NCBI GenBank assembly: GCA_029855925.1
Contig: JAGSHP010000001.1
Coordinates: forward strand, 1-31,430
Direction: 5' to 3'
Source: Candidatus Thorarchaeota archaeon
Lineage (GTDB): Archaea > Asgardarchaeota > Thorarchaeia > Thorarchaeales > Thorarchaeaceae
DNA: 31,430 nucleotides
Made by a program: the position numbers and the translations under genes. Of this stretch, positions 829-25,100 are shown piece by piece (the stretch's first letter is position 1; each line of letters begins with the position of its first letter). The notes beneath the pieces are model-generated. The model was not told where the DNA came from and did not search any database. It worked only from the letters and a program-made list of their open reading frames with translations.

Positions 829-915
829 GGGTTGTGCGTAGATACGTAGAACTAGGACAGACTTGGACTCCCCTCAAGTGGATGTTGATGAAATTGCCAC
901 CAAAAATGCATGAGC

Positions 916-922
916 TTATATA
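916..922 (+). promoter_or_regulatory. Possible archaeal TATA box for the giant gene
   Basis: TTATATA in the intergenic spacer, ~105 nt upstream of the ATG. There is no convincing BRE directly upstream. Confidence 0.3.
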
Positions 923-1013
923 GGAACTTAACCTGCTAATTTTTGAACGTGTCCAGCACCGTACGTGTTGGGATGGTCGATCTTCTGGCCATTAAGTGGG
1001 ACTGTTCACGAAT

Positions 1014-1021
1014 AAGGGAGG
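1014..1021 (+). promoter_or_regulatory. Shine-Dalgarno-like site of the giant ORF
   Basis: AAGGGAGG followed by a 6-nt spacer (TTTAAT) and ATG at 1028. Confidence 0.7.
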
Positions 1022-1027
1022 TTTAAT

Positions 1028-1117
1028 ATGCAATTTAAAGCACACAGGGTTAATAGAGTCCTACTCTTTTTCACCCTAATGTTATGTCTTTCGACAATGA
1101 TACATGTGGCGTCTGCC
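1028..1117 (+). other. Sec-type signal peptide (30 aa)
   Basis: MQFKAHRVNR (basic n-region), VLLFFTLMLCLSTMI (h-region), then HVASA|TE with an A-S-A cleavage motif. Confidence 0.75.
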
Positions 1118-4100
1118 ACTGAAACACCCGTTGAAACACTGTCATTGCCCGAATACATATACTCTTGCTATGACGGCAGTACTGGATTTTCCGACACTCC
1201 CCAGGGAAGTGTGTCATTCTCATCTACATATGATGCAGTGAAGCTGCTGATGGATGAAACGGACCGTTCAGACTGGCCTGTAGGGATGAGCGGAGTATTG
1301 CGGACCATAGGAGATGCATACATCGCACTGCAGAGTCCCGAACGGGGTGGATTTCACTCCTTCAACTCAGCGTCCCCCGATTTTAAGACCACGGCACTTG
1401 TTCTTGAAACACTCCGTCTTCTTGGCAGGATTGATGAAGTTGATGTGGGCATGGTGCGGAGGTACTTGTGGTCCTCATTCAGAGGCAGCTTGACACTTGA
1501 GAGATGGACTACCGAGGGTGACATTGACATGAAATACTGGGCGCTGCGTACTGCTGTCGCCATTGACGATATCCGTGTGCTTGGACTGGGTAGAATCTCA
1601 CTCGACTACGTGTTGTCACCAGACAAGAACAGGGCAGATTACCCTGAGGGCGATCCTTACATGTTCTGGGGTGAGCGCTATCTCGGTCGCAGTGGCTTCG
1701 GTGATGCATTTAATGACATGAAGTTTACGACAAGGCTGCGTGCCATTGAGTCAATTCATATGATGATTAGTGATAAAAAAGAGGCACCGACTCTCATGCG
1801 ACTACTGATTGATGTTGATTCCTTTGTGTCAGAAGTACGAGAAAAGTTTGATATTGAGAGGTACATGTTTACAACAGATAATGGCGACACCGACTATGTG
1901 TTCACTGCCCGTGTGTTCAAGGTACTTGCAGACATTGGCAGGGTCGCAGACCTGTATAGCAGTGATGGACTCGGTGGGCAGAGTTTCACAAGGTCGCTGA
2001 TTGACATAGATAGTCGCCTTGACGGTTTCAGAAATGGTGTATCTCTGAGTGAAACCCCATCATTGTCTAGAATGACCTCACTTAGGCAGATCAGGGCATC
2101 CCTAGACACCATAATCAATCCGACTGTCGTGTACTTTGAACCAGTTTTTGGAAACTCCGACACTGGCATCTCAGACTGGGAACCCCACACTGGTTTCTAT
2201 TTTGGAGAGGAAACCGTGAACATGCTGCGAAACTCTCTCAAGTTTTCACATGATAATATTGATGATCAGCATGTGTCAATGTTCAGTATGGTCGTGATTC
2301 TCTCTGTTATAATGGTGGTGGGAATAATCGGTGACAAAAGGGTGGGCATCGTCCTGACCGTGCTCGTACTGTTGCTATTCATAGGGCAAGAGATCTACGG
2401 CATAGAGAGCGTGATACAATACGCATCATCCTTCGTTTCAGGCATGATTCCACAGTCACATGCTTTGGACCCGCTTGCTATGCGGGGCATGCTGGAAATA
2501 GGCACAAGGTACGTTGAAACGGTATTCACACCGCCAGACGAGGATGCCAGCATGGACTACTCAATGCAGGAGATTGAAATGGGTCCCAAATTGCAGGGAA
2601 CAAACAACCAATTCACGCCAGCCCTCAGCTTGGGTCCTTTCAAGAGCTGGGCGAGTAGATCCATTGCGAGGATAAAGTCCTACATAATTCCGCAGCTCAG
2701 TTCAGACCTTAGAATGGTGTTTGAGAATAATGAAGTCGCACAGAAAGACATAGTATCATTTCGTAATATTGAACTATTGAAAAATGCGGTTTCATCTGAA
2801 GAAGAGAATATGAACCTATTTGGAAATGAAGTCAAAGTGCCGAAGAACTTTGCGAAATTCTACAAAAATCTCGAAAGTGGAAGTTTGACAGCTGATGACT
2901 TCAAAAGTATTGAAATGAAGGGGCACATCCTCACGGCCGTGAGTATTGCGCTGGTCTGTTTCCTTGGTATAAGTCCGCATGAAGCCAAAAATTTAGTTGG
3001 CACATTGAGCGATGTTGTGCTTAGTGTGCGAAATAGCGTGAGTAAAATCTTTGCCAAGTTCGAAAAGAATGGAATTCTGGGCAAGAAGGAAACATTGCTT
3101 TCTATTACAGTAAATGACTTGTTCAAGAAGGATGTAGACTCCTTTGCCAAAGAATTATTGGAGCCAGCAATTGATGATATGAGATCCAAGGGGTATGATA
3201 TCAATGGACTCGAAAATAAAATTGATGAACTCCTGGAGAAGGTCAAGGAATCAGACAGCAAAATACGACTTTACGAGGTACTCGAGTCAATCTTGCGGAT
3301 ACTGGAAAACAGGGATCGTGATAATGATTATAGTAATGTGGCCAACCCTTTGGAAAACCTATATTCAGTCATACTAGCAAACAAAGATGCTGCTAAATAC
3401 AAAGCTGTGACTGGTTCGCCTGAGTTCCTTGCATCCATCACGCAGTTACTGGCGAAGCCAACTGATATGAAAACGCTGCTACATAAAATCTCTAGTACTT
3501 TTGGTAGAAGAGTGCTATTGGAGTTTGGAAAGGGTAGAAATGAGTTGGTGATGACAAAAAAGATGGCTGAGGTTGTACGTCGTATCGGTCTGTTGAATTG
3601 GCTCAGTAAATTTGACATTGATAAGTACTCAGAGAAGAAAGGATATTGCTACGGTGCAAACATAGGAAATGGTCAGGTCGTGGATGTCATCCAACTCTTC
3701 AATCTGGCCATTACTGAATTGGGATACCCCCCTGAGTATGCAATGGGTGATGTCATGGGACTTGCGGGAAATCTTGCCCATCTTAGCCCAGAGTTCCCCA
3801 GTAACAGTGATAGAGGTATCGTGGCAGTATGCATTAACTCTAATGGCAGATTCGTGTACCGAAATAATGAGGCTGTGTTTAAGAAACTTAGATCTGAGAA
3901 TGGCCATCAGTTTCAGGCAGAGTGGAATGGCAAAAGGTTGTTCATCGTTGCTGTAACCGAGCGTGATGATAATGGCGGTGCACGATACAAGGGGGTCTTC
4001 GGACTCCCCCAAAAAATCGCAGATCGTTTGGGGGTGGGAATTGAAACCAAAAATGAACTATCCGACATGAGGGCCATAAAGATTCTTGAGGAGAAAACCA

Positions 4101-7100
4101 ACGATAGGGGAGAACCAATCTTTTTCATCAATGAGAATTCGTTGCAGGAGTTGCAGCAGGAACTCAGCAAGGGCGATGACATCTTCCGTGTGCTAAAGAA
4201 GTTCGGTCTAACAGAGATAGAGCTCAAGTTAGGTCCTGACGGGTCTCAGACCATTATTGGGAAAAAAAACCGCAACGGGGTACCTGTGACAATGTCAGGG
4301 TCTGTTGATAAGAATGTTGTCATTCCATACATCGAAATGGCACTCGAATTCGCCCTTGAGTTACTCAAATATGAGCCAACTTATATTGAGTTCACAGATA
4401 ATGGAAACGGATTGTTGACTGCTCAGGGCAGTGCAAGGACATCTCTGTCCAATTCCATGATAAAAATCACTGAAGATTTTAGCAAAGTGTTTTCACGGGG
4501 CCCACGTCATGGTACAATACGACTCACAGAAACACTGAGTTCTGACATGTCAATCTGGAGGACTGACTCCCGCCAAAATGAACAAACGGGTGGATCTTCT
4601 TCTGACACTCAGACGCCGTATCAACAGATTGATGAATTTCGTAGTAGTCTGATAGAAGAATGTAAAGAACGTTTTCTAGGAGGAAAGGACATTGAGAGCG
4701 GGGTTTTGAGGATAAGAATTGATGACATTACCTTTGCTAAAGATGGAACGATTAGTTTTGGCAAATCCTCGAAAACTGGAAAATATGTCGGGCCAAACAT
4801 TAAGGCATTAATGGACCTGCTAACAGCCAAAGATGATTCATCAAGCCATTCAGACATAGAGAATGGTGGGACCTTAAGAGCAGAGCTGTTCCTATTCCAT
4901 GATCCAAATGAGAATACAGATAAAGCGTTCTTACTCGTGAGTCTGAAGGTAAATAATGAATATGAGCCGATTATTTTCGATGATATCGCCACTATCCTGA
5001 AGAGTCAGACACCCATTCTCTATAAGAATGGAAAAATAGCCGAGTCTCTTAAGGCTCTCTCAGCCGAGGGAGACTATGGGAATGCAGTAGCAAGTGCCTA
5101 TGAGATAGATGAAATACTAACAAATCTGAAGACGATTACTGAGGGTAGTAATAATAATATTGTTGACATGATTACAAAAATAGAGAACAAGATTAATACA
5201 ATTAGGCAAAAAATTAATAATGCGTTCCGAGAACATGTAATTGCAAAATTAAATGATGGGGTCTTGGAAAATAGTGATGTTGTACATGCAGTACATAACC
5301 ATTTAGACACGCTCTTCAACTCTGTGATTGCTGGACGTGCAATGGCAAAGACTGTGATGGCATATATCAAAGGTATTGGAGAAGAGCGAAAAGGAGCAAA
5401 TGTTAACATTGTCGCAGACGCAATCGCACATATTGTGGCAAGGAAAGTTGTGTTTATGGATGCAGTTGACAACGGACTGTTAAAACGTGGAAGTCCGTAT
5501 GAACAATGGGTGAGCACGGACGGAAAGCTTGTCCTTTACAGACAGATGAAGTCGGCAATTGCCCAGTCAACTCACAACTATGGCCGTGCCACTGATGTGG
5601 AGGCATTTCTCATCAAGACGAACATCAATGTTTCAAAACTCAGTAAGACAAAGGCTGCAAGTAAAGGTAACTACGTGATAGAAGGAATATGTCCAGTCGG
5701 TGTCATGGTGAAAGATCACATCGAATCTAGTTCTTATCTTGGGCCAGAACGGGTGAGCAAAATGAGCGATGTGGGTGGATATTACGGTGTGTATCAACGG
5801 CTGATAATTGCTTACCGTTTGAACAAGATAAAAGATGGCGTGCAAGAGCATCACATTGTCACTGCAAAAATGGGTGGGATTGGTTGGGTAGAAACTCTTG
5901 AAATGCTATCTATGTTGTACTCCATGTATGAAATAGCAAATATTATGAAAAAGAATAGTGCAAAAGCATTCATCAAAACGCAGATAGATTTCCTATTGCC
6001 CCCCGATGCCAATAATGACTATGCCGTTGCGTTGAAAGGTGCAATGGATGAGTTTCATGAAATATCTAATGCAATGAAAAAAATTCTGAAAATGTTCGAC
6101 ACTCCAAACTTGAATACCCTAAAACTGCCCATCAGTCGACTACTCCTGAATTGGATGTTACTGACATTGTGTATACCGTACAAAACAGATCCGGGTCCAA
6201 GAATATCTGATGTCAACCATGCCAACATTGTTTCGCTCTTGAACTGGTACAAGAACATGTTTGTCCTCGACCCGTCTATTATGATGGACAACACAAAGAT
6301 GATATTGTCCTCGTTTGCGCCGTTGGGTATTCAGGGAGAGGTCGAGCAGTATATTGCGGGGTGGCTCAAGGCGCTCATCCATGACGATAGCGTGTCCATG
6401 GCCCTCAAACAGGATGTGCTAAATGAACTGACCTACGATATCATTGGATCTGGTCGCCTCGCAGATGACTGGCCGTACCCGCCGTTTCAGATTGGTGAAT
6501 GGAGGTTCATCAACGAGGAGAAAGACGCATGGTACAACCTCTGCGATCCGCAGGACATAACTACTGGTGTCGATTTTGGCAGTGTTCCACTCAGTCAGGA
6601 AGTCCACATCACCGAGGAGATGAAGATTGACAGCATCAGACTCTATGTGACAATGCCGTGGACCGACAATGTTGCAGCGTTCCCGTTCAGGATCTCCGTT
6701 AGTGATGGCAAGACCGTAGCCTCGGGGAGAACAGATGTGTGGAAAGACGGTGTCGTAACATTATCACTTGACAGACAGATTCACGTTAATGATGGTGACA
6801 CTGTGACTATCACACTAGTTGCTCAGGAGACGATGGGACGCGTTTGGCTGACCCATCGGGGTTTGCTGTCTAGGGCACAGGATAAGATGGCTGGTCGTTT
6901 CATGGGCGATGGCAATGAGCTCGAGGGTACGGTGATGTACGTGGCGCTTCACGACGCCATGAAGAGTTCTGTGATTGGTTGGCAGAAGACGGGTATCAGG
7001 TTTGAGTCGGACATAGATGTTGACACCTCCGTGCTTATCGGCGATGGTCAAAACTACCTTGATGCATACTTCACGTCTAATCCCCAGGATAAGATGCCGA

Positions 7101-10100
7101 GGATGTGGATAGTAGCGACAGCATTCAACACTACCACGAATAGCACCAGTGTTGAGATGTTCAACTATGAGTTCACGGAATCTAGGATTTACTCCGAGAT
7201 TCCAGACAAGAGCTACCAGAACGTTCCCGTATACATCTACGGTGATGGTCTTGATTCGTTTTTCGTGGAGTTAGGTCTGCGCATCACCGATCAAACGAAC
7301 GTCAAGTACATCACAGACAACGACCTTATTGACATAGTCTTCTCGCGCAAAAAAGGACTGGTAGTTGTCACTACTGACACCGTGCCAGCAAAGGTCATGC
7401 TGGCGGCATCAAGCGGCAAGACGTACTTGCGTGAGTGGCTCGAAGATGGCAACCAGATAGTGAGTGCTGGTGTGTTGCCATTCAGCAATGTGATCAACAA
7501 CGGGCAAAAGCTGGACACCTTCGATTTCCTTTACGGGAACGAGATCTCTTCCAGTGGTGCTTCACGTATCACAGAGGCGCTGATCACGGGCCATTCTGCC
7601 AGTGTGACTCAGGCGCAGGCGGCGATATACCAGAACCCCGCGGGTACTAACAACACCTACACGATGGAGCTGGGCGGTGAGGTAACGGATGACTACATCG
7701 AACTCAGTGGCAACGCGATTGATAATGATGGATCTATGACCTTCGTGTTCGGCATAGCAGCGGCTGATTGCAACTCGACACCGAAGAGGTACCAGACCTT
7801 TGACATCACCTTTGACGGGCACACAATCTTTGACAGGTTCACGCTGGACCAGCTGCGTACAGCGAACCACAATCTTGGTTCGAGTGGTGTGTTTTACGGC
7901 AACAATGCACGATTGTATGTACAGCACGTTGGCAATATAGAGCAGATTGATGGTACTGTGGACTGTGACTTCCTCATGTACCTGACTGTCGATGGTAGCT
8001 GGTTCTTCAAGGGGCCTCATACAATTGGTATACATGACAGGGATGACAATAGGAATCCGTCCATGCAGACCATAAGGGTACTCGAGCTGGGCAACATTAT
8101 GGAATATGAGAGGCTCAACAGACGCGAAACATTTGAGCGTGTCTTGGCGAGGTATCAAGGCGTACCAGAGATAGGCGCCGGTGTATTCGCCGTCACGGGA
8201 ATGGATATGGTGGTTAAATCGAATGAGGAACTCAGGAGTTCCTTCACCCTTAGCAACACAATCGGCCTAGATCCTGTGGAATCGATATACGCGATTGACC
8301 TGTCAGCCGTGTCTCCGTTCAAGGTCTATGGTGTCGATCTGACGGGCAAGTTCGGCGAGGCCACCGTTCGTGTAGGTGGCGGCTATTTTACGATGATTGA
8401 CATTGTACCATACTCAATAAACAACTGGGACACGATTGCCAAGCTACAGTACGTGCTGACTGGTGTGGTTGGCGACTGGACATGGCAGCACAGTACACTT
8501 ACTACTGATGGCTTCGGGCTCTACGTGAACGGTCAGACGTTCGAGGGCATGACCCACATGGTGGACACTGTCGACACTAAGGCACGGGTACATCAGGCAC
8601 TGGTGCCAAACAGGGACCTGAAGAATGATGGCTCCTATGCGAACTCCTTTGACACGGTATCGAACGTCAGTGCCGTGAACGCTACATTGGAGTGGACTAA
8701 CGGTGCAGTACTCGTGAATGGCAGTGCGGCTGGTGCGTCTGGCCAGTTCAGCATGACTGTGACCGGTGCTGACATGACAGACGACTATCTGTTCGTATCA
8801 GCCTACATGGTCAACTGTAGCCTCTCTGTGAACAGCACAGTGGGCAACATTGGTAATGTCCGTAGCAACGGCATCAGTATGTTCAAGCTTAGCACCGGTA
8901 CGCATACAAACATCTCCTTCGTGGCAACATCAGATGGTGACGGTGCATTGTTCAAGCTATACTGGATGTCCAGTTCTAAGACGCCCTTCCTGATGAGCGA
9001 CCAGCAAGTGGTGGTGGAGGATTTCTATTCCGTTGACAATCTCGTTGCATCAGGTTTTGAGTCTGATATTGTGACAGCATCAGGCGGTCTTCTGACCTTT
9101 GCACATGACGGTCTTGGCAATGATGTGGACTCGGTGTATTTTGACACTGAACCCATCCACGACCCAAGATTGATCCTCGAAATACGGCATATGGTCAATG
9201 AGACTGTGCAAGACATGGTCATCAGTGTCGTATTGCACTCAGAACAGAGATGCTCTGGTTTCAACCAGACTATCGTGCTTAATCCGAAGACATCTATGAA
9301 TACTGAGCGACACCATGTCACACTCACCACAATCCGTTCGATAGAGCTGAGGTTGTCATCACCTGCAGTTAGCTCCAACATGGCATGGATTATTGACTGG
9401 CTGGAACTCTCGGTGGACTCTGACATAGCACTCACGATGGATGACCCGATGTATGTGTCATCTATTGGTGATGTTGTGTACGAAATCGCTGGTGATGAGC
9501 TAAATATCTACACAAACAGCACAACAACAGTAGAGGTATTTATCCCTGATGTGTTTGTCAACACCGCAAGCTACCCGTACATGCATGTTAAACATTCCAA
9601 CAATATGACCAGTGCTAACATCACCCTTTGCACGACTGATGGAAATTTCAGCTACACACTGTCAGACACTGGACTTGATATGTTCAATCTTACTACACTG
9701 GAGGTAGACATCACCAGTATTGCAGTGCGTGTGACATCCGATGGTGCGAACCGTACCTTATCGCTCGATGCGATTGTCTTCTCTGACATTGCAACAACAC
9801 TCAATCAACGGAACAAAGTGACGGTTTTCTACCAAACAGATACTGGTCTCTCAACAATCGTGTTAGACGATCATCTGATGTCATGGGACGTAGGTCTGCT
9901 GACCATTGGCAACGACACATGGGTTGGCTCACGCACCGAGACCAGCATCGTCGAATGGACATGGGATGTGATGATTGTGCGTCAGGACATTCTTGATACT
10001 GATGCTTCTGTGACCGTGATGTTCTTCAATGACGGTCTCATTGACTTTTTCATCGACACTGATTCGTATGGTGTCATTATGAACCATCAGTACACCGCAA

Positions 10101-13100
10101 CCAAGTACTCTGATAGCTTTGGTGTAGTGAACAACACTGTTGTGAGTGATATTATCCGAACACCGACCTTTGCTGCGATGTATGGCAGCGGTGTTGGTCC
10201 AGCGGTCACCGCACTTGACGGTGAGAGGGTCACGGCATCTGTGCCGATGTCACGGTTCTCCATTGACATGAATGCCAATGACTCCGCCGTGCTTATCCCC
10301 TTCGTACAAGAGCGTTTCGAAACCATCGCTGGTGTCGAGATCGATCCCAACTTTGTAGTTTCAATAACTGATGTTTCAAAAGGTGGACTGCTCAGCGGAT
10401 GGACAGGAATTATCGACTCGCAAGACGTTGCGTATTGGGATGGCAGATTCAGTGAAGTCTATGCATTGCATGAGACCTTTAGTGGCAGTAGTAAGTGGAT
10501 TATCGACAACGAAGGGCAGACTATGGACACCAAAACAGCACTCGAAAAAATGACGGCCGAATCCATTGACGGGAAAATGATACTGACCCTTAATGCCAAC
10601 GAGAGCACCACAGAGACCGTGGTCATGAAATACAACTTTCTCGACATCCCAGTGAAAAACTACCCATTCTTCAGGATTGTAGCATCCGGTGATGAGAACC
10701 TCACGTTGACTGTCAAGATTAACATCACAGGTGAATCCGTGCTCTATGATGTGTGCACAATCACGCCCACGGAGAAGAATGAGGAAACAATCAAGAACAT
10801 TTATTACATACTCGACAGCGCTGGTAGGCCGGATGCTGTCATTCAGGGTGTGGAGATATGGATTGAGGAGGTCTCGCCATCAAAGATCTGTAACAAGACC
10901 GTGATGCTTGATGAAGTGGACATATACGCGATATCCGGCTTTGAGGCGATTATCATACCGAACTACACAAACGAGAACTCTGTGGCGAAGAGCAATGGTG
11001 CAATGCTCACACTGTCTGCGGACAAGGAAAAAAGGATGAGGCTGCGCAGGATTATGGAGCCGCGGATTGACACCACCATGAACAGGATATTCCAGTGGCG
11101 AGAGTATGTTGGTTACGAGTCCACGATAAACATAGTCGTGACCAATAGCTCCAGCAGTTCATATGTTATAGACGAGGATAACACCAACTGGGCAGTGGTC
11201 ACTGACGATGTGTCTGAGATTCTCGAGATTGCCGAACTCAACATCACGCATGTGTCTGGCGCAAACACCGAGGGCGAGTCTCATATAGACTGGATTAGGG
11301 TGATGAAGCCTTACACCTCCCTCTATATGTGGGAGGGTTTCGATGACGGATCATGGACACCGACTGGCGGTTTCACACTCAGCGCATTCTCAATGCCTGC
11401 GCCTTCTCCAGATAATGAGATAAACGAACCCTGGACAGGTTCTGTGTCAGGACAGTCGGTGGAGCGGTGGTCGAGTTATGACGCCGACCCGGGCTCGTTC
11501 AGTAACGGTGGGCATCTCTCGATACATGACGCCACCCATTATGAGTGGACACAGTGGTACATTGCAGACGTGACACGGGATCACGGGTACACCAGTCAGC
11601 ATACCAACATCAACAACGAACAGGACTGTGGTATCGATGACGGATACAAGGCGGCACAGGCTGTCGGTCCAATTGCGACAAATGAGTACGTGACGGCATT
11701 CAAGGTCTATATCAAGGCGTGGGAAGACCCATTGTTCATAGGAAAGAACGTTCGATGGCGGGTATACTCTGGTACGGAGACAACACCCAACTACAACTCG
11801 ATATTGCGATCTGGCAGTTTTGACGCCTCCACATCTGCATTTGGCTGGTATACCATATCGTTCTCCGCAATATACGGCAGCAACTCATACCTCTGGATCT
11901 CCGTTATGGGCAATAAGTATCTGGATCATGGTGGTGGGCTCTCAAATGATGAGCATCCCACTGCCGATCAATATGTCTATTCCAGAGTCTATTGGAAGTA
12001 TGACTCCACCTCGGACAGCAGTCCGGGAGGGAAACGGTATCTGAGTGGCATTGGCAGTGACTGGTATGACTTTGCGGTTCAATATCGGAAATACACAAAG
12101 TACAGTGGGTCATCAGTCTATAACTATGGTATCACGATTAACTGGCACGACAGTAGCGGGAACCATCAGCAGCAGTTGTCCACGGATGGTACAAAGGTCA
12201 CACACTCTGCAAGCACGGACGATGTGTGGGTGACCGCCGTTTCGTCCATTACGAACATCAATCCCTCACGAGTGGTTTCATACTACAAACGTCCTACAGC
12301 GAGTACCAGTGCCTACTTCTCAGCAGACCCCGACACAGAGGTGACAACATGGGAGTTTCCGAAGGACTTTGTACTGACCAACTACGGCGACCATGATAAT
12401 ACGAATGACGGTAAGTTCAGGTTCAACAAAGACTCGTCATGGTCGTACTCAAGCATAAGTCCCACGGGGCCCTCAGTGACTATTGTCGGGAATCAGGTGA
12501 CTGTCACAAATGTGGTGTACGGGACCGCGTACACACTGACATTCACACAGTCAAACACTGCACTGACGATCACACCAAAGAGGACCGATTCAGGGGGTAA
12601 TGTGTTGGAGGACGGCCCTGATGATGTACCATACCTGGGATATTCACGAAGCACCACCTCTGCAGGTGCGGGCAACAATGGCATCTTCTATGTATACGGA
12701 TATGTCTGGGACATGATAGACGGACACAGTGCCACTCTTGAGTTCAGTGAGACCTCCTCAAGTGGGCTGAGTACATACACAAGTAGCAACAGGCAGATGA
12801 CCTATCCGGTTGACTCCGGCCTCTACTATCGGGTGTGTTGGGCATCCGACAGTGGATTGAAGCGGTTTTGTGAGGCTGAGGGTCACTACATCCGCGAGCC
12901 TGCACTTGATACGGACCTCTCCCACAATCCGAGCTATGACTCCTCTCAGCAGTCCAATAGTGAGCATGTGGAAGTGAGACTGGACTACATGTATGGTTCC
13001 AGTGACATCACCATGCATTATCGAGTTGGTGGTGGAAGCTGGCAGACCACTGTGGAGTCCGGTGTGACCCACGGTCCCACCGGTGAGCAGAACTATGCTC

Positions 13101-16100
13101 ACTTCACCTTTGATGACTTTCTGGGGGTTTCTGACGAGGAGAAGACAATCGAGTTCTACTTCACGACGAATGCCTGGGGCGGGCCCCACACCTTTGACAA
13201 CGGTGGGAACTACTGGTCATTCTATCTTGAGGACAGCGACACGGATGGTCCATCCATAACGAGTGTGTGGCCATCCGATCATGGTACTGTCATGGACAAC
13301 AGTGCAAATGTAAGATATGGCGGCGTGTATGGTGACGGAGAGATCAAGGTCTATGCCACCATAACGGACCCATCAGGTATCGAACATGCCGAGGTCCACT
13401 GGACCTATCAGGCAGGCGGCAGTGGGACTGTGAGTCCAATGGAGCACTCCGGAGACCTGTATTGGGCATGGGTCCCGATTTACTATGTTGATAACCCTGA
13501 ATTCAGTGACTACCTCAAATTCAACATCACTGCGTATGACAATGATGCGAGTATCTCATCGAGTTCTGAAACCAGGAGTCATATTAGGGTGCAGGATGAT
13601 GACTATCTCGCCCCGACTGCAAGTGGCCTCGACAGTGGCACATTCATCGTTTCCCAGAGTATCTCTGACAGCGGTATATGTACCGACTACAACACCGGTA
13701 ACTCTGGTATTTCCACGTCGTTCTCAAATGTGACATGGTACTGGACGGATGCACCAGAGACCGTCTACGAGGCAGACACGTTCAGCATCACGCCGAATAT
13801 GAACAACGGTTATGACTGGTCATATACCATATCTTCCTCGCATTGGACCGAGGCGGACGAAGGTAGACAGATTACTATCACTCTGAATGTTGTTGATGAT
13901 GACGATGACAGGGGTGCAATCGACCGTATGGCCGGCTCGTATAGCTGTCAGTGGACAATGAACGACGACGACACCACGGCACCAGTCATCGAGGCCACTG
14001 CCACATCACCCACAATGGACGACTCTGTGGTGCAGGACTTTGTGCTGTATGCGAAGATCTCTGATGCAGGTCCAGACGGTGTGAATGTGGTCAAGTTCAA
14101 GTATGACATAGGCGGGACCACATATGGGTCATTCCGGACCGCCTCCGACAACAACGGCACATGGTGGTGGTACAACATTCCATACTCTGAGTGGAGTGCC
14201 GAGGTCCAGAATGACCCGAGCGGTAAGACGGTGTACTTCTGTGTATACGCACAGGACGGTGACAACAGTCCGCTCTCGGTACAACAGAATGACATAGTCG
14301 GGAATCAGGTCAAGGACAATGACGCACAAGGGCCGAGCATCAGTCTCGTGAGTCCAATTGAGGGGTCCTTCAAGTATGATGCCGAGTGGCAGACATCAGG
14401 AATTGAGGTCTGTGTGACTATCTCCGACTCATCACCCCTGGACAGCAACAGCATTGAGTTTCAGTACAGAGAGCAGGGCTACAGCTGGGGCGCCTCTTGG
14501 TATGGATACACAAGTTCCGGTTCCGGAAAGTACTACTTCACAATACCCGACTCATGGCTGGACGCACATATCAACAGCATTGTTGAGTGGCGTGTGCATG
14601 CAAGTGACGCAGACAACAGTCCCACATCAAGCACGAGTGCGACGTTCAGTTTCCATGCAGACGATGATGATACCGTCATAGCGTTCTCGGAGTTGGGTCT
14701 GAATAACCCAAGCACAATGTACTCGGACAAGTCGTACACAATACGGATCAAGATCACTGAGGGCTCAGGAATAGACGCACAATGGGTGGAGTGGTGGTTC
14801 ACCGGTGAGGCCCACCACGAGGAGAACATGACCCTCGAGTCACAGAACGGAAACGAATACATCTACAAGTTCACCATAGCTGCCCCGGGTGACTCTCGTG
14901 AGAATACGTTCTTTGAGTGGACGGTGCATGCACGAGACACCGACAACGACAGGGGCGACATTGACAAGACCTACCAGACCAGTCATCGCGACAACATCCC
15001 GATAGCAGATGATGATGCCGACACACCGGACATATACAACACCGTCACGAGTGGTGACATTCTAGACAACAACACAGGGAGTTACATATTGCGGGTATAC
15101 GTGAATGACGAGTCGCCGGTCAACGTGACAGTGTGGTACAGGTACGGCAGCGGTTCATGGTATGGTCCATTCAACATAACTGACTCGAAGGTCGCCGTGA
15201 ACAGCACCGCGTCTTACTTCACATATTACATAGCAAGGACTGGCGGCTGGCTCGACCATATCGGTGAGATGATCTACTGGAATGTCACGGTCTGGGACAA
15301 GGACAACAGTCCTCTCAAGACCGAGATAAACAGCATGCAGGCAGGTACACCGACAGATGACGACACGAGTGCACCGTCACTCACTGGCGAAGACCCGTCG
15401 AACGGTGCCTCGATAACCGATGGCTATATTGTCACACAGACGCAGGAGAAAATGAGGGTGGAGTTCAGGCTGACGGACAGACTCTCTGATGTGTCGTGGG
15501 TCAAGTATAAATGGTCCTTCAATGACGGCCCGTGGAGTGACTGGCTTGATGCCACGCGGTGGTATAACCCTGATAAGACCGACTGGTGGTACTTTGACAT
15601 TGACTCCGATCTTCTCCTTGACAACACAGGCAAGACGTTCAGGTACTACCTCTGGGCCTCCAACGGCGACAACGACAGGCCGAACGATGCCGAAGAGTAT
15701 CTCGAATCATATCCGAACAACTATCACTGGTTCATGATACGGGACGATGACATATCTGAACCGGACCTGACGCACGTACAGCCGAGTGCCCCGGTGTCGA
15801 ACACGGACTTCACACTCTCATTCACCATAACAGACACTGATGGCGAGAACGGTGAGAGTGGTGTGTCAGAGGTGGTCCTCTACTACAGGTATAATAACAA
15901 TGCATCTTCATGGATGACGACAACGGCATACTCGAAGAACGGTGACGTATACAGGTTCACATTGAACTTAGGGGATGACTGGGAGGCGTACGGTATTGAG
16001 TACCTCGTATATGTCAAGAACGGCGATACTGATCGTGGTCTTGCAAATGATGCAGAGTACGGGTACAAGACCGCCACGGGATCATACCTCTCCCTCTCGA

Positions 16101-19100
16101 ACGCTGAGGGTAGCGGGTGGAAGCTAGCAGTGCTGGATGATGACACTGCGGCACCAGTGATAAGTGACATTGATACATCCGGTGTCAATGACGGGGGTCA
16201 GTGGTGCTTCAATGTCACGCTCAGCGACATGTCCGGTATACACACCGCATATGTCTCAGTTGATGGCAACATCAATCAGACTCTGATTCTCTGGGACAGC
16301 AGTGTTGATGCCGATTACTTCAGTGTAGACAACTATTACTTCTATGTGATACTCGACCCACTGCCACTCAATGGCTACCATACAATTGAGGTCTTTGCAC
16401 TCGATGATGATGGTGTCGTGTCATCGGACAAGCTGTGGAACAGTCAGTCTGTGACATTCCTGTCGACAGATGATGACATCAAGGCACCTGATGTGAAGGT
16501 ATGGATCCCTGATGCCGAATACGATGCGATAGCGACCATCTATGCCAATGTGACCGACTACAGTGGCATATCCGAGATCACGGTGTACTTCTGGCAGGGT
16601 CGTGGTGTCACCTCTGCGTCAATGGTGCTTGATGCCACATACAACGGCACATCTTGGAGATACAGGTACGATGTCTCACCAGAGCAGACATACTGGGGCT
16701 CCATGCTCTTTGCATATGTCTACGCTGTGGACGATGACTACGACTTTAGCAACTCGTCCGACCACAGCAGTGTGATCACGGCCACGGTGTATGGTACGAT
16801 AATAGACTCCACCCCACCGATAATAGATTATGTCACAGGACCTGTGGGCACGGTGGAGTACAGTGAGGACAATCGCGTATGGGTTGTAGCGTATGAGCCC
16901 GAGGATGCATCACTCGTTTCTCATGCGTACATGAACTACAGCCTCAACGGTGAGTGGTTCCTCGTGGAGATGGGTTATGTGAACAGTTCACTGTCCAACG
17001 GGCAACACTATAAGACGTTCATGGCCAGACTGCCGCTGAGATACGGAGCGACCCTACAGTATCATGTGATATGTTATGACAATGCTGGTAACAGTGTGAC
17101 GAGCGCCACATATACCGTGGAGAGTGTTGTGGACACCACACAGCCGGAGCTGCTATACTCGCAGGTGATGTATGCGGAGCCCGGTGTGAACGGTACACTC
17201 ATTGCAAAGTTCTACGAGCCCGATATTGCATCCGGTCTTGTATACGTACAGGTGAACATCAGGCTCAGACAGAGCGGTACATGGGGCGACCTCTATCAGA
17301 CCAATATGACCTACAACAGTAAGGCTGACACATGGGTGTTCACACTCCCAGCAGTCAGTGAGAATGACGAGTTCCAGTACTGGTTCAGTGCAGAGGATGC
17401 AGCGGGTAACATGTTCACAGGAGAAAACATAACATATGTGGTGAAGGACTTCTTAGAACCGACCATCATTGAGACCGGAGTCCTCAACTCTATAGAGGAG
17501 CCCAATAAGGTGGCATATCTCAGGACGATGTTTGCTGTCGAAACAGAGGGAGTCTACAGCCTCGTGGCACTGCGGAACGGCGCTGTCGCCAACATGACCC
17601 TGTGGCTGGACGGTGACGAGATTCCGAGTGGTGCACAGGTCATGCTCTCTAGTAGTGTACACATCGTCATGGTCAGGGTCGAATCGGCTGACATGTATGC
17701 GATGTGGGGTGTGCAGGTCATGAACATGAAGTCAGAAGTCTCTATCAATGAGACCGCCCTCGCATTCAACCTCCTGATGCCTGCACCACCTGCGGACGAG
17801 CTACGCATCGAGCGTGTGGGTGTCCTGGGTCCAATGACCGGCAATGACTATTATGCCACATACTCGTACGACGACATCGCCATAATAGAGGGCGACTTTG
17901 AGAACAGTGTCGACAGCTGGGAGTACGTCAACGCGAGGAGACTCAGTGCTCTTGGAATCGATGGATCATATGCACTTAGTCTCTGTAGTGACACAGGCGT
18001 AGAGGGTAGTGCGTCGTATGACTATGCAGGCAACATCACTGCTGACGCTCTGGCTTTCTATTACAAGTTCAACAGCAATACCGACTATACAGGTCTCGAT
18101 GTTTCGATCGGATACATGGATGGTGACTGGCTCAACCAGACGCTGGTAATCAATGAGACCGTCACATGGAAGCAGGTTGTAATCCCGATCAGACACAAAG
18201 AGATATCGGTCGTGGTGCTATCACAGAACACTGACAACACTGACCCATACGCCCTACTTATTGATGATGTTTCGCTCGTGACAACGGAGCTTGTGAAGAC
18301 AAGCTGGAGCACAAAGATGTATGACGACCTGTCACCTCACAAACTACTCGAAGTTGACGCAGGGACCGTTACAATGGAGTATGCTGGATATACTGAGTTT
18401 GTTTCACAGGTCGATACGAAAGCAGTCCTCGATGTCACACTTGTCAATGGTGTGCAAATGGATATATACTCCGGAGTGGTCAAGATAGCCTCAATTACGT
18501 CAAGTGCGAATGTGCCATTAATGGTCACGCGTGGATTGAATGTTTTGACAGTGTACATCAATGCGACAAACGCCAAACTGGGCTTTGTAGGTATGTATCT
18601 CAGGTTCACAAATGGCACGCAGGTGCCTGTGACTGTCCTCGGATTGAATACTGGTCTAGCATCACTGACTGATAGTGAGAGCGCGATTATTATACCACTG
18701 CTCCCAGAGTTGTGGCAGGTGGACGAGCAGAGCACCACAAATGTCACAACGACTGCCAACGATGACACATGGGAGATCGAGGCTGAGATTGAAGTCGCCT
18801 CAAATGATGACCTGACTGATGACATTGTGGTGTTCAATATCACAGAGGGCTTTGACATTCGTGTGATGCCAGTGCTTGTTTCAGAGATCTGTACAAATGA
18901 CACATCACTGATGATCAGGTATATGGCTGAACTCCATTCTGCCTCGACAGGTGAGTCAGTCTGGGTAGCCATAGACTGGATTAATGCGAGTGTGGGCAAC
19001 TATATGACTGATCTGACATGGGCAGCTGCGCAACAGTTCGGCACCTCTGCGGGAGACTACGATGAGTTGCTAAGCCTTGAGTTATGGATTGGGGACCTTA

Positions 19101-22100
19101 CGGGTGACGGCGCGTTCATTACGGACACGGCGAGCGTGTCTGTCCTGACCTACTTCAAGTCTCGTGTTGGTCATGTCTACGAAACGGTCCCGAGAAACAA
19201 CGGATACAGCAGTCTTCTCTCTGACTTCGACATTGCCATGGATGACTTCAACATATCTAGCAACGCGTTTCATGGATATGGCTCTGCGCTGGTTGGTGGG
19301 AGCAATGGCGCGTTGACAATAGATGTGTCAGAGGAGCCACTCCCAGAAATAATCAGGTTCTTCTGCAACGGTACAGTGTCTGTAGACATTAGCATATCAC
19401 TGGACGGCAGTAATTACACGGTCAATGTGATGGACACGCCAGCTCAGGACAGCTGGTCCACGGCATTCACTGCCAGACGTGAAACTGTCGTGGGATGGTA
19501 TGAGTACATCATCGACATACTTAGCACCGTGAAATCACTAGCTGTCGACAATGATGTCATGTTTAATGAGATCTATATATTTGAACTGACATTCGATTCT
19601 GCTGAAGCCAGTACTGTGGTTATAGATTCATTGAAGTTAGAGAACCATAGGGAAGTCATAGTCGAGATACCATACTGGGATGTTTCGATGGTCTGGGAAA
19701 CGAGATGCCTCGGCTTCCATCTTGTTGGTACCGAGGGACTGAGTTCTGTGAACCAGCCGTATTACAGTGTGGACTATGATGGTATAACTCTTGAAACAAC
19801 AGATAGATCATGGTATGAGGTGACGAACCTGTTCGTTTCTAACTACGATACAACCGCCGTAGTGGTACAACAGGCATACGGGATGGGACTAATTATAACT
19901 GACACCTATTTCATAAACAACACTGGATATGTATCATTGGACAGAAATGTAAGAAAACTTGGCAGCCCAGATCTCTATTCCAATGAAGTCATGATGACCT
20001 TCAACTATGATTTGGGCAAGGTCATGCAGGACTACTACATTGACTCTGCAAGCGTGCCTCTCTATGACTTTGGTGGTGTACTTCTGAGTCATGCATCCGA
20101 CGGGATTGACAATACTCTGGATGTCGATGTTGTTGAGGAGGACGTTGACTCGCCATACTTCAGTCGCTCCATGAGCACCATTGTTGACATAAGCAGCTAT
20201 GAGGCCTGCAACATCGTTTCTGATGGTGACCTGATGAGGATGGCACCAGAGTACAACAAGGACTCTTTCTGGGCAGAGTACTCTGGATTGAACATTGACA
20301 ACAGTATTGCAAAGTGGCTCATGCTCTCGGTGGAGAATGTATACGACTACATTGGATATGTCGAGTTGTATGGTCCATCTGGTTTTCTCGTGCGCCATGA
20401 GTTCAACAAGTCAGGAAGACATACATTCGCGCTCTCACTGTCTGAGAATATCGTAGCGGTCAGAATAGGCGCAGAATCAGTGACACTATCAAACATACTC
20501 ATGGTGGACTGGCTGACCATCAGAGAGAGACCGTTTGTGGTAGATCTCCCACCGACCTCAGATCTCACACTGAGAAGGCACTATCCCGATTTTGTAGAGG
20601 ACTTTTCTGACATCTCGGGCTGGGACTTTGAGGAGTATAATGTCAGTAGTACGGAGTACTTCCAGTGCGGTGTCAATTCTGGTATGCTCATCTTTGAAGG
20701 CTACTTCCGTGAGAGTCATACGGACACAATTGAACTGACAGGACTCAACATTGACACATTCAAGTACCCGAACTTCAAGATGAACTACCAAATCGAGCAG
20801 AGAGGCCTCATAAACGGGCAAGTCACATTCAAGATTCATTATGTGAAGAACGGTGTGGAGGGTGTAAATACATACTACATCTTGACAGAAGAGAGCACAT
20901 CAGGTGATGGGGTTGTCACAGAGAACCTAAATGTCACGACGGACGGCGGTTGGGTTACCAGCATAGAGATTGCGGCGGAGGGGTACAACGGTGCTGACGG
21001 GGCCTATAAAGTCTGGATTGACGATATTGTCATTGTCGAGGATACACTCGAGTACTACTACGTGTTTCGTTCACCGTTCTTCAGCGACAGCTTCACCTCT
21101 GTCAGTGATTGGAATAATGCTGACGGCACAGGATCTGTCACTTCATATCTGAACAATGACGGTATCAAGTTCACATCAACCTCAACGACTGCGAACTTCA
21201 GCAAGGACTGTCATCTTGAAATAAGATTTGACTCTGTGTTGGAGTTTGAGATAATGAACGGCGCTGGCACAATGCCTGACAGGATATGGGTGGCCTTTGA
21301 TCTCCACAATACAACGAGAGTGGATGTGATGGAGGTGACATCTCCGAGTGCAACATATTACAGGATGGACCTTGAGAATTTCACATCACTTGAAGTCGAC
21401 AAAGTTGTATTCGGTCTTGAAGGTAGTGGTGATGTATTGGCATTAGACTACATCAGAATCTCGGAGGCGTACAGCGCTCATGTATCATGCCGTCACATAG
21501 GTGGTTGGACAAGTACTGCAAACAGGCTCATGTCAGATGGGGAATCCGTCACAATCGAGGCATCAGTTGGTTCATGGAGCGCCAACTTCATGTTCCCGGA
21601 GGCACTGCCGTCATCAGTATATTCCACCCTGCGAATCGAGTACACGCTCGATCATTCCTCAGACGGGCCAGAGATACGACTGCGTGGACTGAACGGTGGC
21701 GATACGTACGACCACCTGTCAATGGACGAGATATATGAGGATGACTGGATTTCACCATTCATAGCAGACGGCGAGAAGCATACACTCTACCTCGATGTTG
21801 CAGAGAGGTTTCCGGGCAATGCGCTCTACCGCATCGAGATACGAGACACATCATCAGAGATGTACAACCTCACTATACACAGCATAAATCTCTTGGAGAA
21901 ACAGGATGACATCGCACGAGTCGGGTCATCAGGATGGACGTCTGCGGCATTCATGACTGAAGATGCACTCCGGTTGCAGACAATTGCCGATATTCAGGGC
22001 TCCTATGGTCTTCAGTTCAATATATCCGTTCATGGCAGTTTTGCAGAAGCGATACGTGTTGAATACTCATCAGTCATCAATGCAGACATAGATGCTTACC

Positions 22101-25100
22101 TCTATGTCACCACTAACAACACAAAGTACGAATACAACATTCCGTTGTCGGCATGCCGCACAACGCAAATCATCAGTATAGCAAATGTCACGGATGAGAT
22201 ACTAGATGTGGGAATCACGATGAACTACACTTGCAGTAACGATGAGTATCTCTGGCTTGATATCTATGACCTCAAAATACTCTCAACCCCGCTCATCTCA
22301 TATGATAGGTTTGAATCATTCTCGGCAGGGACAGCAACATTCACAGACATTATAGAAACACTCTATCACATCCAGACGCTAATCAATGAGGACGTGGTTG
22401 ATCAGACGACTGGCACCGATGTAGGTACACACTCGGACTTCACAAATCTGCAGAATGCCATAACACTACTTGACACAATGACAGAGGGACTGACAGGTAC
22501 ATGGGGTTTTGACGGTGAGTTCAATGTGTCAAGCTACCTTGAAGTCCTTGGTGCAGTCGTCGAGATGTCAACCTACTGGCATCTCGATGAGGCGGACTCT
22601 GGCGATGCAGGACCATATATTGATGTTGCCGACTCCTACAACATTGTGTTTGGCGATCTGTTGACATCCGGAGTGCTACTTATCCAGACACTCGGTGATG
22701 GAGAGACATTGAACATCACGGAGCATGATGATGGTACACCACTATCAGAGCTCTACACGGCTGTGGTTGACTATCACAGTTGGACTGGACTCATCAGTGG
22801 GACAATAACAGATGTTCAGACTGATGATGCCAACTACATGACACTCACAGAGGAAGATGCTGGCGTGGCTGCTGTGAACGGTGAGCACGGCTATGACACC
22901 AGTAATGACAATCACTTGCCGGCCGATGTTGGTGTGGAAACATTACCCAATAATGCAAATGATGGTAACATTGTCACGGTGATGACGATCGCAGAGTACA
23001 ATTCCGGAGAAGCAGGAAACCTACAGTTTGAAACAATAAAGATCACGAATGTAGGCACCGACTGGGTAGATGTGAACTTTGCAAACACATATGTCAGCCC
23101 AGTGGTGATTGCCACATTGGAGATTGGTGCTGGGCATGATCCAGCTGTCACAGCCGTCGACCATAGAGTTAATGCGGTGACGAGCACTGGATGCAAGGTC
23201 AAGATGGCAATTCCTGACCATCAGTATGGTGATGGCAGTTATGTGAATGGTACAATATACCTCTTTGTTGTGGAAGAGGGCAGCTGGGACGTTGCTGGAC
23301 TACCAAAGATTGAGGCAGGAATACACACGACCAGTACTGTTGTGGCAAACACCTATGATAGTGCTGGAGAACAAGTCATACTCAACTCGACGCTCTGGAG
23401 TGGTGTGTCACAGGCCGAGTTCTTTGTGACTGTCGGTACTGAGAATCAAGCGGCAACAGGAAGCAAATGGATTAGTGCATGGGTCAATGGTGGGAGCAGG
23501 ACCACTACCCCAACCACGAGTTCGTTCTATATTTCAATGAGTTCTGCAGAGTGTACTCCACAAGACAACCACCCGCAGGAAGATTTGCACTATGTAGTGA
23601 TTGAGAACGGCATATTCAATTATGGTGGAATGCACATGCAAGTCGGTCGAACAAGTGACACAATTGACGAGTACACTTCCAACAACCTATACACTCACGA
23701 GTTTGGGCATACGCCTGTCTGGGGTGTCAACCAATACCTCAGAATGGATGGTAACAACGGTGGATGGACGAATTGGGCTGACGGGCCGTTTACAAGCACA
23801 ACAATAGAGCCATACGTTCAGGAAGACAGGTGGCAAGACTCAGAAGTGGCACACACGACCACACAGGTCAGCTACATACTCTGTACAATGGATAACTACT
23901 CTACATCCCTCAATGGTGATAATTACGACCTCGACTTAGAGTATCAATTCAATGGAGTGGACACAAGTACCACATATGCAAACCTATCGATATACATCGG
24001 GTACCACAATGGCACTGAGGATCTGAATGTGGACTACTGGAACGGCACCAGTTGGAGTAGTCTGGGGATGGTACCTGCCGATATTGACTATCAGTGGTAT
24101 AATATAACGATTAAGGACCCTGATATACCCATTGATGTCCTCAGTTCCGACTTCGAGATACGGTTCGATGCCATCACTAATACCAGTGATGTAACACACG
24201 ACTCTTGGGAGATTGGCGAACTTGTGATTCACACATGGACCCCTGCCGTCATAGACTATGAGATGAACACAAAGTTCGATTGGGACACCACTGCGGACGA
24301 TACGAGGACCTATGGAGTGGTGATAATCACAGTTGCATCGTCGAGCACAGAGGCTGCCTTTATTGAAGCATGGGATGGTGCCACATGGAATAGAATTGGT
24401 ACAATAGACAGTGGAATATCCTCTGACATTACCTATCAGTTTGATGTGAAGAACGATACTGTTGACTACATCCTCGGTACAAACTGTACAATTCGGATCA
24501 TTGGTGTCGATGAATCTCTAGACGCTACACAGGACAGTTGGGACATTGACCTGATTGAACTACATACATGGACCCCAGCAGTGGTGAACTACAGGTTCGA
24601 TGTTGACTTCACATGGAATAGTCCCGTCACTGATGCTGAGATGTCATCCGTCTGCATGTACTTTGAGGGTAACTATGGAAATGAGCAATTATCAGTGTAC
24701 TATGACAATGGTGGCGGTTGGACAAACACTGGTGAAGTGATACCAGCAGGACTGACTGGCTGGAAGAACATCACAGTGACGGGTCTGGTGACAACATCTA
24801 CCTTTAGAATCAAACTCGTGGGCCAGTCAGAGTCATCAGATATATCACGGGACCGGTGGGACATTGATTATGTTATGCTGAGAACTTCCAGTTCAATCAC
24901 GAGCCTTACGGCGTATGACACACTAACAACGGTATATGGTCACTGGTTGAATCAGGCTAATGCACAGGACATCGGTGGCGGATATATGACAGTGACCGAA
25001 ACGGAGAACGGCACACAGTTCACAGATTTGAGTGACAGTGTAGATGCATATCTTGCATTCACAGGAGTTGTGTCACTGTTTGCGAATGCACAGTCACTTG

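Follow-up and report, generated by a model that had tools for sequence, protein, structure and literature searches.

A hypervariable block follows the predicted membrane anchor of a giant surface protein in an uncharacterized family of Asgard archaea

Introduction

Some giant surface and filament proteins of bacteria carry a module that varies between relatives beside sequence that is conserved. In the CdiA and Rhs systems, the variable part often deviates in composition, with a lower GC content, and is marked off by a short invariant border motif: CdiA-CT follows a VENN motif, and the C-terminal tips of Rhs/YD proteins follow PxxxxDPxGL. Here, we describe a variable block in a giant gene of Candidatus Thorarchaeota archaeon, an Asgard archaeon, where it occupies a different place in the protein. 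The window, by which we mean the whole 31,430-nucleotide stretch analyzed (GenBank assembly GCA_029855925.1, contig JAGSHP010000001.1), is one entire contig (C81) of a metagenome-assembled genome (MAG; 2.2 Mb, 75% complete, 477 contigs). Almost all of it is taken up by a single forward-strand open reading frame (ORF; 1028..31429), which remains open to the contig end and encodes more than 10,134 amino acids, with its 3′ end open.

No known organisms are more closely related to eukaryotes than the Asgard archaea, whose cell-surface proteins are almost uncharted. In a survey of very large proteins, UniProt contained just three Thorarchaeota entries longer than 5,000 amino acids, all of them uncharacterized (PMC11573180). 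Judged by its Sec-type signal peptide and a high density of N-x-S/T glycosylation sequons, the giant ORF fits the description of a secreted, N-glycosylated archaeal surface protein. Near its start, between a predicted membrane anchor and a conserved module, lies the block, at 2633–6187 (residues 536–1720; 1,185 residues). Downstream of this region the protein continues as an acidic stalk of more than 8,000 residues, rich in Ser, Thr, Tyr, and Trp, with 126 sequons within the 8,414 residues after the block (1.5 per 100 residues). We find that the block is a hypervariable module, and that sequons have been almost entirely removed from it.

Results

Conserved Flanks Enclose a Variable Block

Searches with the flanks of the block recovered homologs in five genomes (G015, G345, G349, G391, and G392), all from the window's GTDB family. 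The MAG itself carries a paralog on another contig (C436), and five metagenome contigs and five database proteins also gave homologs. Of 85 genomes of this family, 5 contain the conserved module; it was detected in none of the 314 genomes from the phylum's other families. The giant surface proteins form a rare family, recovered here from a single Thorarchaeota-type family within the Asgard archaea.

In each member, the N-terminal anchor aligns to the window protein up to residue ∼532–581, and alignment is regained from residue 1719–1721 onward at 23%–60% identity. The intervening 1,000–1,450 residues are unalignable by BLASTP. Thirteen other versions, from Thorarchaeota-type MAGs and metagenomes, carry a block of ∼1,000–1,450 residues at the equivalent place between the conserved anchor and the conserved module; on these alignments, the block is a trait of the family rather than a one-off insertion. 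A first-pass annotation of the window, made from the sequence letters, had proposed a compositionally foreign module at 2700–6200 and asked whether it is replaced in homologous giant proteins while its flanks are conserved. It is: the block is replaced or unalignable in these homologs, both flanks are conserved, and the coordinates were essentially right, refined here to 2633–6187.

The C-terminal edge of the block is marked by a short motif, [D/N]PG[P/S], present in all 14 aligned sequences, in which the Pro and Gly are invariant. Two homologs have Asn for Asp, and one has Ser for the last Pro. Farther into the conserved module, a near-invariant pair of sequons (NTT and NST, residues 2034–2040, window 7127–7147; N598 and T600 of the aligned segment) recurs across 14 homologs and looks like a conserved glycosylation site just past the block. 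An AlphaFold2 (AF2) model of residues 1441–2200 places a β-sandwich in this module (residues ∼1830–1980), with a block-mean predicted local distance difference test (pLDDT) of up to 92, followed by an α/β domain (residues ∼2060–2170). Foldseek returned weak matches of the module to DUF4082/CBM-like domains, phage baseplate proteins, and SGNH/CE2-type esterases, some of which combine a β-sandwich with an SGNH-esterase-type fold; these weak matches suggest ordinary extracellular domains.

Block and Flanks Differ in Their Relatedness

Flank identity and block similarity are uncorrelated across the family (Spearman −0.12 for the core of the block and −0.01 for its tail), and by this comparison, block relatedness is uncoupled from flank relatedness. 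The loci L021 and L023 group together in the flank tree (support 99/99) and are 57.6% identical over 3,819 residues downstream of the block and 47% identical over 650 residues upstream of it; their blocks (∼1,020 residues each) have no similarity. The tail of the L023 block matches that of P0008 (z 39.9) despite just 36%–39% flank identity. The flanks of L032 and L033 are the least similar of all (23%), yet their blocks can be aligned over ∼1,000 residues (z 28.8), and two paralogous blocks within G015 share 35%–62% identity. These last two cases show that the block is not intrinsically unable to be conserved. Taken as a set, the alignments suggest that in some lineages the block was replaced or diverged in bursts.

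In a search of sequencing runs, the stretch turned up in its source sample, a hydrothermal vent metagenome, and in no other run. Two observations from this metagenome touch on variation among strains. A low-depth contig (2.4× versus 13×) differs from the window at 11 of 151 positions (window 4617–4767, inside the block), and four block positions distinguish the main Logan contig from the MAG (in the region of window 3173–3312). The numbers are small and hint that strain variants are concentrated in the block.

GC Content Reaches Its Genome-wide Minimum in the Block

The GC content of the block, 0.416, is the lowest when set against 358 other 3.5-kb windows of the genome (mean 0.504, SD 0.018, range 0.455 to ∼0.55). 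Its GC at third codon positions (GC3) is 0.424, compared with 0.557 ± 0.051 in 877 long ORFs, and the difference persists after standardization for amino acid content (0.41 in the block, 0.54 in the genome, and 0.56 downstream; chi-square p ∼1e-19). Lys is encoded by AAA in 55%–71% of cases in the block and in 22%–26% in the genome and downstream, and Glu by GAA in 49%–73% and ∼30%, respectively; AAT and GAT are also favored. The protein sequence shifts too, with Lys rising from 2.2% downstream to 8.5% in the block and with amino acids that have AT-rich codons (Lys, Asn, and Ile) enriched. The shift is therefore synonymous as well as driven by amino acids, and the GC drop, the turn to AAA, AAT, and ATT codons, and the Lys richness reported by the first-pass annotation are all borne out. 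The net charge of the block is approximately neutral; that of the stalk is strongly acidic.

The two borders, as located by homolog alignment, differ in kind. The N-terminal border is gradual (residues ∼520–580, nucleotides ∼2590–2770): high-scoring segment pairs from the N-terminal flank stop at residues 532–581, and column identity is at background beyond residue ∼520–560. The C-terminal border is sharp and coincides with the DPGP motif (residue 1721, nucleotide 6188), at which GC3 in the window steps from 0.43 to 0.64. A dip of GC3 within the block and a step up at the motif are found at 9 of 10 loci (mean −0.11 to −0.16), which have very different genomic GC backgrounds. The tail of the block has a GC3 as low as that of the core (0.41). 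In the conserved module, variable sites have a GC3 of 0.60 and conserved sites one of 0.55, whereas in the block tail both site classes are AT rich, including the conserved sites (0.38). Because the variable sites of the module are not AT richer, the GC3 dip is a regional property rather than a result of constraint being relaxed site by site.

No direct or inverted repeats were found flanking the block, and there are thus no insertion scars; comparison of the block with itself by BLASTP gave no internal repeats. The dinucleotide signature is uninformative, the block lying at the 94th percentile while the rest of the giant ORF, with its odd amino acid content, deviates more. The only homopolymer runs of at least seven nucleotides in the whole 31-kb window, A8 (4262–4269) and A7 (6077–6083), both lie in the block.

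Turnover of the block would be explained by segmental replacement or recombination between the conserved flanks, combined with fast divergence. Recombination of this kind would draw on an AT-richer pool and give the block a history separate from that of the rest of the gene, which its AT-rich codon usage would then reflect. Region-specific selection for rare codons may be an alternative cause of the GC3 dip.

Sequons Are Depleted from the Block

Across 11 block segments (10,685 residues), we counted 4 N-x-S/T motifs where 58.7 are expected (observed-to-expected ratio [O/E] 0.07); three of them fall at the N-terminal limit of the blocks as we delimited them. Four additional homologs have no block sequons at all. 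Control motifs (the reverse sequon and six others) occur in the blocks at an O/E of 0.8–1.2. In the window, a single NVS is the only sequon from the transmembrane (TM) hairpin to residue 2034, exactly as the first-pass annotation had counted by hand. Family-wide, the toroid-like ectodomains carry 11 sequons versus 12.4 expected. On this distribution, glycosylation is evidently used on either side of a block that is kept bare.

The cytoplasmic-type (non-hydrophobic) ORFs of the genome carry sequons at chance (O/E 0.97), so a cytoplasmic location would leave a 15-fold depletion unexplained. Sequons would be selected against only in a protein that meets the oligosaccharyltransferase, and we infer that the block lies outside the cell. 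The predicted topology agrees with this. The signal peptide is retained in homologs, and every homolog with a recovered N terminus has the hairpin with its short loop bearing Lys or Arg; by the positive-inside rule, this arrangement would place the chain past the hairpin outside. No further conserved TM segment is found beyond the hairpin.

Two marginal hydrophobic stretches, at either end of the block, had been noted in the first-pass annotation as possible membrane spans that would enclose a cytoplasmic signaling domain. Both exist where they had been placed. The first (residues 630–648) has no counterpart in the 13 other block versions and is most likely a buried helix rather than a membrane span; a crossing by this stretch and not the second would leave the sequon-rich stalk in the cytoplasm. 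The second (residues 1698–1717) is not a membrane span: it aligns to charged amphipathic helices in 13 homologs, with Kyte-Doolittle (KD) hydropathies of 0.12–1.24, and AF2 predicts a helix there at low confidence.

The Block Combines an Orphan Core with a Semi-conserved Tail

A phmmer search with residues 556–1740 against 1.84 billion representative proteins gave no match at E ≤ 1e-3, although this search also missed the weak tail similarity that was later found pairwise. The core has no match in Pfam, NCBIfam, PDB sequences, PADLOC, the ESM Atlas, or viral contigs, and nothing in PHROGs beyond one line at E 0.006 to a family of unknown function. ESM Atlas searches with residues 650–1700 and 940–1330 gave no usable match, and no Pfam domains were found in seven other block segments. 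Searches for proteins of 4,376–5,000 residues and of a word index for the N-terminal module returned nothing; these are weak searches, crowded by long or common-word candidates.

Within the family, the core is equally isolated. Smith-Waterman comparison with the 13 other block versions gives it a z score no higher than 2.7 in 12 cases, and hhalign found no match between the core and a 7-sequence block profile. A likeness to P0010 (Smith-Waterman z 5.9) was dropped, as its composition-adjusted BLASTP E value is 1.8. The last ∼255 residues of the block (1467–1720) are related to the tails of C436, L034, L023, P0008, and L032 (z 10.8–13.8; hhalign E 0.008). With a 14-sequence alignment, AF2 gives this tail a block-mean pLDDT of ∼64–87 for residues ∼1461–1510, and we assign it with moderate confidence as a predicted α/β unit.

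The core is predicted to be helix rich, with some α/β segments and with strands also predicted. Hydropathy and charge fall in the folded range in 10 of 12 100-residue windows of the block, and hydrophobic residues make up 40% of it. By these measures, the block looks folded.

Anchors and Blocks Occur outside the Giant Gene

The contig that carries the same-genome paralog, C436 (L017 3-3731), is 3.7 kb long and open at either end. The paralog's module shares 40% identity with that of the window, and its block is different, being Arg rich and having only the tail in common with the window block. A further protein, on contig C20 of G015 (L016 2433-6740, reverse strand), is complete at 1,435 residues and consists of a signal peptide, a toroid, a TM hairpin, and a block of ∼970 residues, without the DPGP module and without a stalk. 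This block is 62% and 35% identical to that of the same genome's giant gene; the protein is free of sequons past the hairpin and has a low GC3. Three stand-alone anchor proteins of 761–877 residues (L050, on G392 C13; L051, on G392 C38; and L052, on G349 C61) comprise a signal peptide, toroid, and hairpin with the first 250–400 post-hairpin residues, and unrelated genes come next. That these three stand alone, followed by unrelated genes, indicates that the anchor is an independent evolutionary unit. Considered together with the anchor-plus-block protein of G015, they indicate a functional tie of the block to the anchor and not to the stalk.

Four relatives have a break in the giant ORF that falls inside the block. 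The G015 lesion (L015 7077-7085) moves the frame by 1 nucleotide at a G6 run, and the sequence stays homologous on either side; the others are a frameshift (L021 6827-6872), several shifts (L035 7371-8256), and one in-frame stop (L036 79-81). These breaks could be pseudogenes, assembly errors, or switching. An architecture of two genes, one for the anchor and one for the stalk, was considered as the general arrangement and rejected, because the breaks are heterogeneous lesions or errors.

Features and Neighboring Genes

The features of the N-terminal part of the giant gene are listed in Table 1. The assignment of the toroid-like domain is tentative: it scores 21.5 bits against Pfam PF00432 (E 1.8e-4), below the gathering cutoff of 26.5, and is 25%–47% identical to its homologs. 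Upstream, a leucine-rich repeat (LRR) protein is encoded at window 1-828, with a 72-nucleotide repeat period in at least eight copies, and ends 200 nucleotides before the giant gene. LRR genes also adjoin the giant genes in G349, and fragments of LRR genes do so in G015. An Rfam search of positions 1-9000 gave no match.

Table 1. Coordinates of features in the N-terminal part of the giant ORF
Feature	Window coordinates	Strand	Basis
Signal peptide, residues 1–30	1028..1117	+	Basic n-region; hydrophobic core, KD 2.07; ASA|TE site
α/α-toroid-like ectodomain, residues 31–415 (conserved N-terminal flank)	1118..2272	+	Pfam Prenyltrans, sub-threshold
TM hairpin, residues 416–455, short DKR loop	2273..2392	+	KD peaks 2.77 and 2.24
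Post-hairpin stretch, residues 456–535, still weakly alignable	2393..2632	+	BLASTP to G015 version, E 0.002
Orphan core of variable block, residues 536–1466	2633..5425	+	No database or family matches
First marginal hydrophobic stretch, residues 630–648	2915..2971	+	Kyte-Doolittle 19-residue mean 1.83
Semi-conserved block tail, residues 1467–1720	5426..6187	+	Aligns to C436 paralog and L034 from residues 1467–1470
Only block sequon, NVS, residue 1534	5627..5635	+	N-x-S/T count
Second marginal hydrophobic stretch, residues 1698–1717, just before DPGP	6119..6178	+	KD 1.47 (usual threshold 1.6)
[D/N]PG[P/S] motif, here DPGP, residues 1721–1724	6188..6199	+	Border of block and module
Conserved module (C-terminal flank), residues 1721–2200	6188..7627	+	23%–60% identity across 14 homologs

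Discussion

The finding reported here is a hypervariable module in a giant surface protein of an uncharacterized Asgard family. With a probability of roughly one-half, we read this block as a glycan-free, membrane-proximal ectodomain with fast turnover, which probably serves as a pedestal for protein contact. The chain would begin with a cleavable signal peptide and a toroid-like domain outside the cell, followed by the TM hairpin with its loop inside and the block again outside; beyond the block would come the [D/N]PG[P/S] motif, the conserved β-sandwich/α-β module, and the acidic, sequon-bearing stalk. The purging of sequons suggests that the block, in this position, needs a bare protein surface. 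For a bare, near-neutral, helix-rich, lineage-specific domain of 130 kDa beside the membrane, protein-protein contact is the most plausible use. The pedestal would pack against the anchor's own ectodomain, against neighboring copies, or against a partner protein, and such a private interface would be free to co-evolve and to be swapped quickly. The block is not a recognizable enzyme, toxin, or signaling domain.

Several points weigh against this interpretation. The topology is drawn from hydropathy and the positive-inside rule, and the role as a contact pedestal is likewise an inference, from composition and selection. The Lys plus Arg and Asp plus Glu contents of the block, ∼13% each, are nearer to those of the genome's cytoplasmic-type proteins (11.8% and 13.9%) than to those of exported ones. 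A single-sequence AF2 model of the block has a mean pLDDT of 34.5 and is unusable for a fold search, and the ESM Atlas recognition score is 1686, compared with the 2300 reached by 91 in 100 proteins of known families. Replacement and extreme divergence are not cleanly separable by sequence comparison, since homologs are saturated at synonymous sites and the flank tree is otherwise a star. A donor or second copy of the core was found nowhere among the 1.84 billion proteins and the viral contigs.

The block might instead be a weakly constrained spacer with no specific partner or activity, selected only to remain open reading, soluble, unglycosylated, and ∼1,000–1,400 residues long, and otherwise drifting near-neutrally toward an AT-rich equilibrium. 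The orphan core, which neither AF2 nor the ESM Atlas recognizes, would be expected of such a spacer, as would the enrichment of Lys, Asn, and Ile; the GC content of the block is near, and below, that of intergenic-like DNA (0.453), and a neutral region would lose all similarity among homologs whose synonymous divergence is saturated. However, relaxed constraint alone does not lower GC3 here, as the variable sites of the conserved module show. The blocks of L032 and L033 are as conserved as their flanks, the paralogous blocks of G015 have retained clear identity, the hydropathy looks that of a folded protein, and the strong and specific purge of sequons shows selection on the block surface. We regard a spacer as unlikely. 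A location inside the cell fares worse. If both hydrophobic stretches spanned the membrane, residues 649–1697 would form a cytoplasmic loop with a signaling or scaffold role, and with four TM segments in all, the stalk would again lie outside; the first stretch is hydrophobic enough, the near absence of sequons would fit, and the charged-residue content is like that of the genome's cytoplasmic proteins. Yet the second stretch is below the usual threshold and is replaced by charged amphipathic helices in homologs, and the first has no counterpart, even though all homologs show a sequon-free, more basic block of low GC3. Both stretches are thus private to the window version, and the O/E of 0.97 in cytoplasmic-type ORFs makes the depletion unexpected inside the cell. 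We find a cytoplasmic domain hard to credit.

The first-pass annotation had favored an effector or toxin cassette. Under this explanation, populations would keep a pool of unrelated, AT-rich, glycan-free modules of ∼1,000 residues that recombine within the conserved flanks into the base of the giant protein and act on other cells in strain recognition or as effectors or toxins, possibly after release by cleavage at the Asp-Pro of the DPGP motif. Unrelated blocks between conserved flanks, an invariant short motif exactly at the border, the lowest GC of the genome with a regional difference in codon usage, and the patchy distribution of the family would all suit such a cassette, and avoidance of glycans suits a domain that must be translocated or bind tightly. 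However, the variable part is internal and near the N terminus, and the motif is C-terminal to it, the reverse of the CdiA/Rhs layout. The ORF runs on for 25 kb, so a downstream immunity gene is impossible; there is no ORF of at least 150 residues on either strand within 2700–6200, and upstream genes differ between loci except for the LRR proteins. No toxin, defense, or phage family matches the block, which at ∼1,200 residues far exceeds typical toxin tips; G015 encodes a stand-alone anchor-plus-block protein without a filament, and no pair of loci was found with near-identical flanks and different blocks. We consider a cassette of this kind decidedly unlikely. A chimeric join of foreign DNA during assembly would account for an extreme GC outlier in a fragmented MAG, but the frame is open through both borders, independent Logan contigs of the source run cover 802–4696 and 6109–9318 and so bridge both at an even depth of 12–14, and the flank-block-flank layout recurs in independent assemblies. 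The chance of such an artifact is negligible. What stands of the first-pass interpretation is a variable, probably exchangeable module: the block is not collinear among homologs, its GC content is significantly different, and no ordinary extracellular fold is apparent in it. The toxin and cytoplasmic functions that it proposed lack support, the former for want of a known-family match or of an immunity gene visible in the window or the upstream flanks examined, for an internal block of this size, the latter being disfavored by the two unconserved hydrophobic stretches and by the sequon purge.

This family follows a clear three-part logic, in which a base free of sugars and hypervariable in sequence separates the conserved anchor from the conserved, putatively glycosylated stalk. 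Purging of N-x-S/T is a signal, readable from sequence by itself, of surfaces that need to stay bare, and it could be used to map the functional faces of other uncharacterized archaeal surface proteins. If the block is a private docking pedestal, it is an example of fast, self-contained evolution of an interface inside a conserved giant protein; if it is exchanged between strains, this would be evidence that Asgard archaea have polymorphic cassettes with a recognition or effector role.

Halomucins and Asgard proteins of more than 5,000 residues are likewise predicted only, mostly without an assigned function and rich in lectin- or Ig-like modules, and that survey of huge proteins does not describe an internal, hypervariable, sequon-purged block bounded by a conserved motif (PMC11573180). 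The literature that we searched brought up no such internal, sequon-purged variable block. Among surface receptors that discriminate kin or partners, the variable domain of Myxococcus TraA is comparable in being a lineage-specific, fast-diverging ectodomain in an otherwise conserved surface protein, and the variability of both could plausibly stem from a protein-protein interface. The TraA domain is small and distal and has a recognizable fold, whereas the block described here is very large, membrane proximal, and an orphan. The N-terminal retention or anchor modules of giant bacterial adhesins such as LapA and MpIBP are similar in forming the non-repetitive, cell-proximal, N-terminal end of a long repeat-rich stalk. 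These modules are conserved and plug an outer-membrane channel after type I secretion, in contrast to the Sec-type signal peptide, TM hairpin, archaeal envelope, and extreme variability found here.

Asp-Pro sites of self-processing are known from the FrpC self-processing module and from GD|PH in the von Willebrand D domains of mucins. As in DPGP, the Asp-Pro of these sites is part of a short conserved motif that marks a domain border within a giant secreted protein. They differ in that 2 of 14 homologs here have Asn for Asp and that the surrounding sequence is unrelated, and the analogy makes self-processing at DPGP a lead only.

As in the CdiA and Rhs systems, a module in a giant surface protein is replaced between relatives, its flanks are conserved, a short invariant motif stands at the border, and its composition deviates toward lower GC. 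In contrast, the variable part here is internal and adjoins the membrane anchor (residues 536–1720 in a chain of more than 10,134), and the motif follows this part and is itself followed by 8,400 residues in frame. No small gene of immunity type is visible in the window or common to the upstream flanks examined, the true 3′ end of the gene lying beyond the window; the block has no known toxin fold, and no orphan cassettes were found. We know of no counterpart to glycosylation avoidance in the bacterial CdiA/Rhs systems. The block works like a polymorphic or hypervariable surface-protein module but is not a member of the CdiA/Rhs systems; should the unlikely reading as an exchangeable cassette prove true, it would be an archaeal, N-terminal-side counterpart of the bacterial polymorphic toxin and kin-recognition systems.

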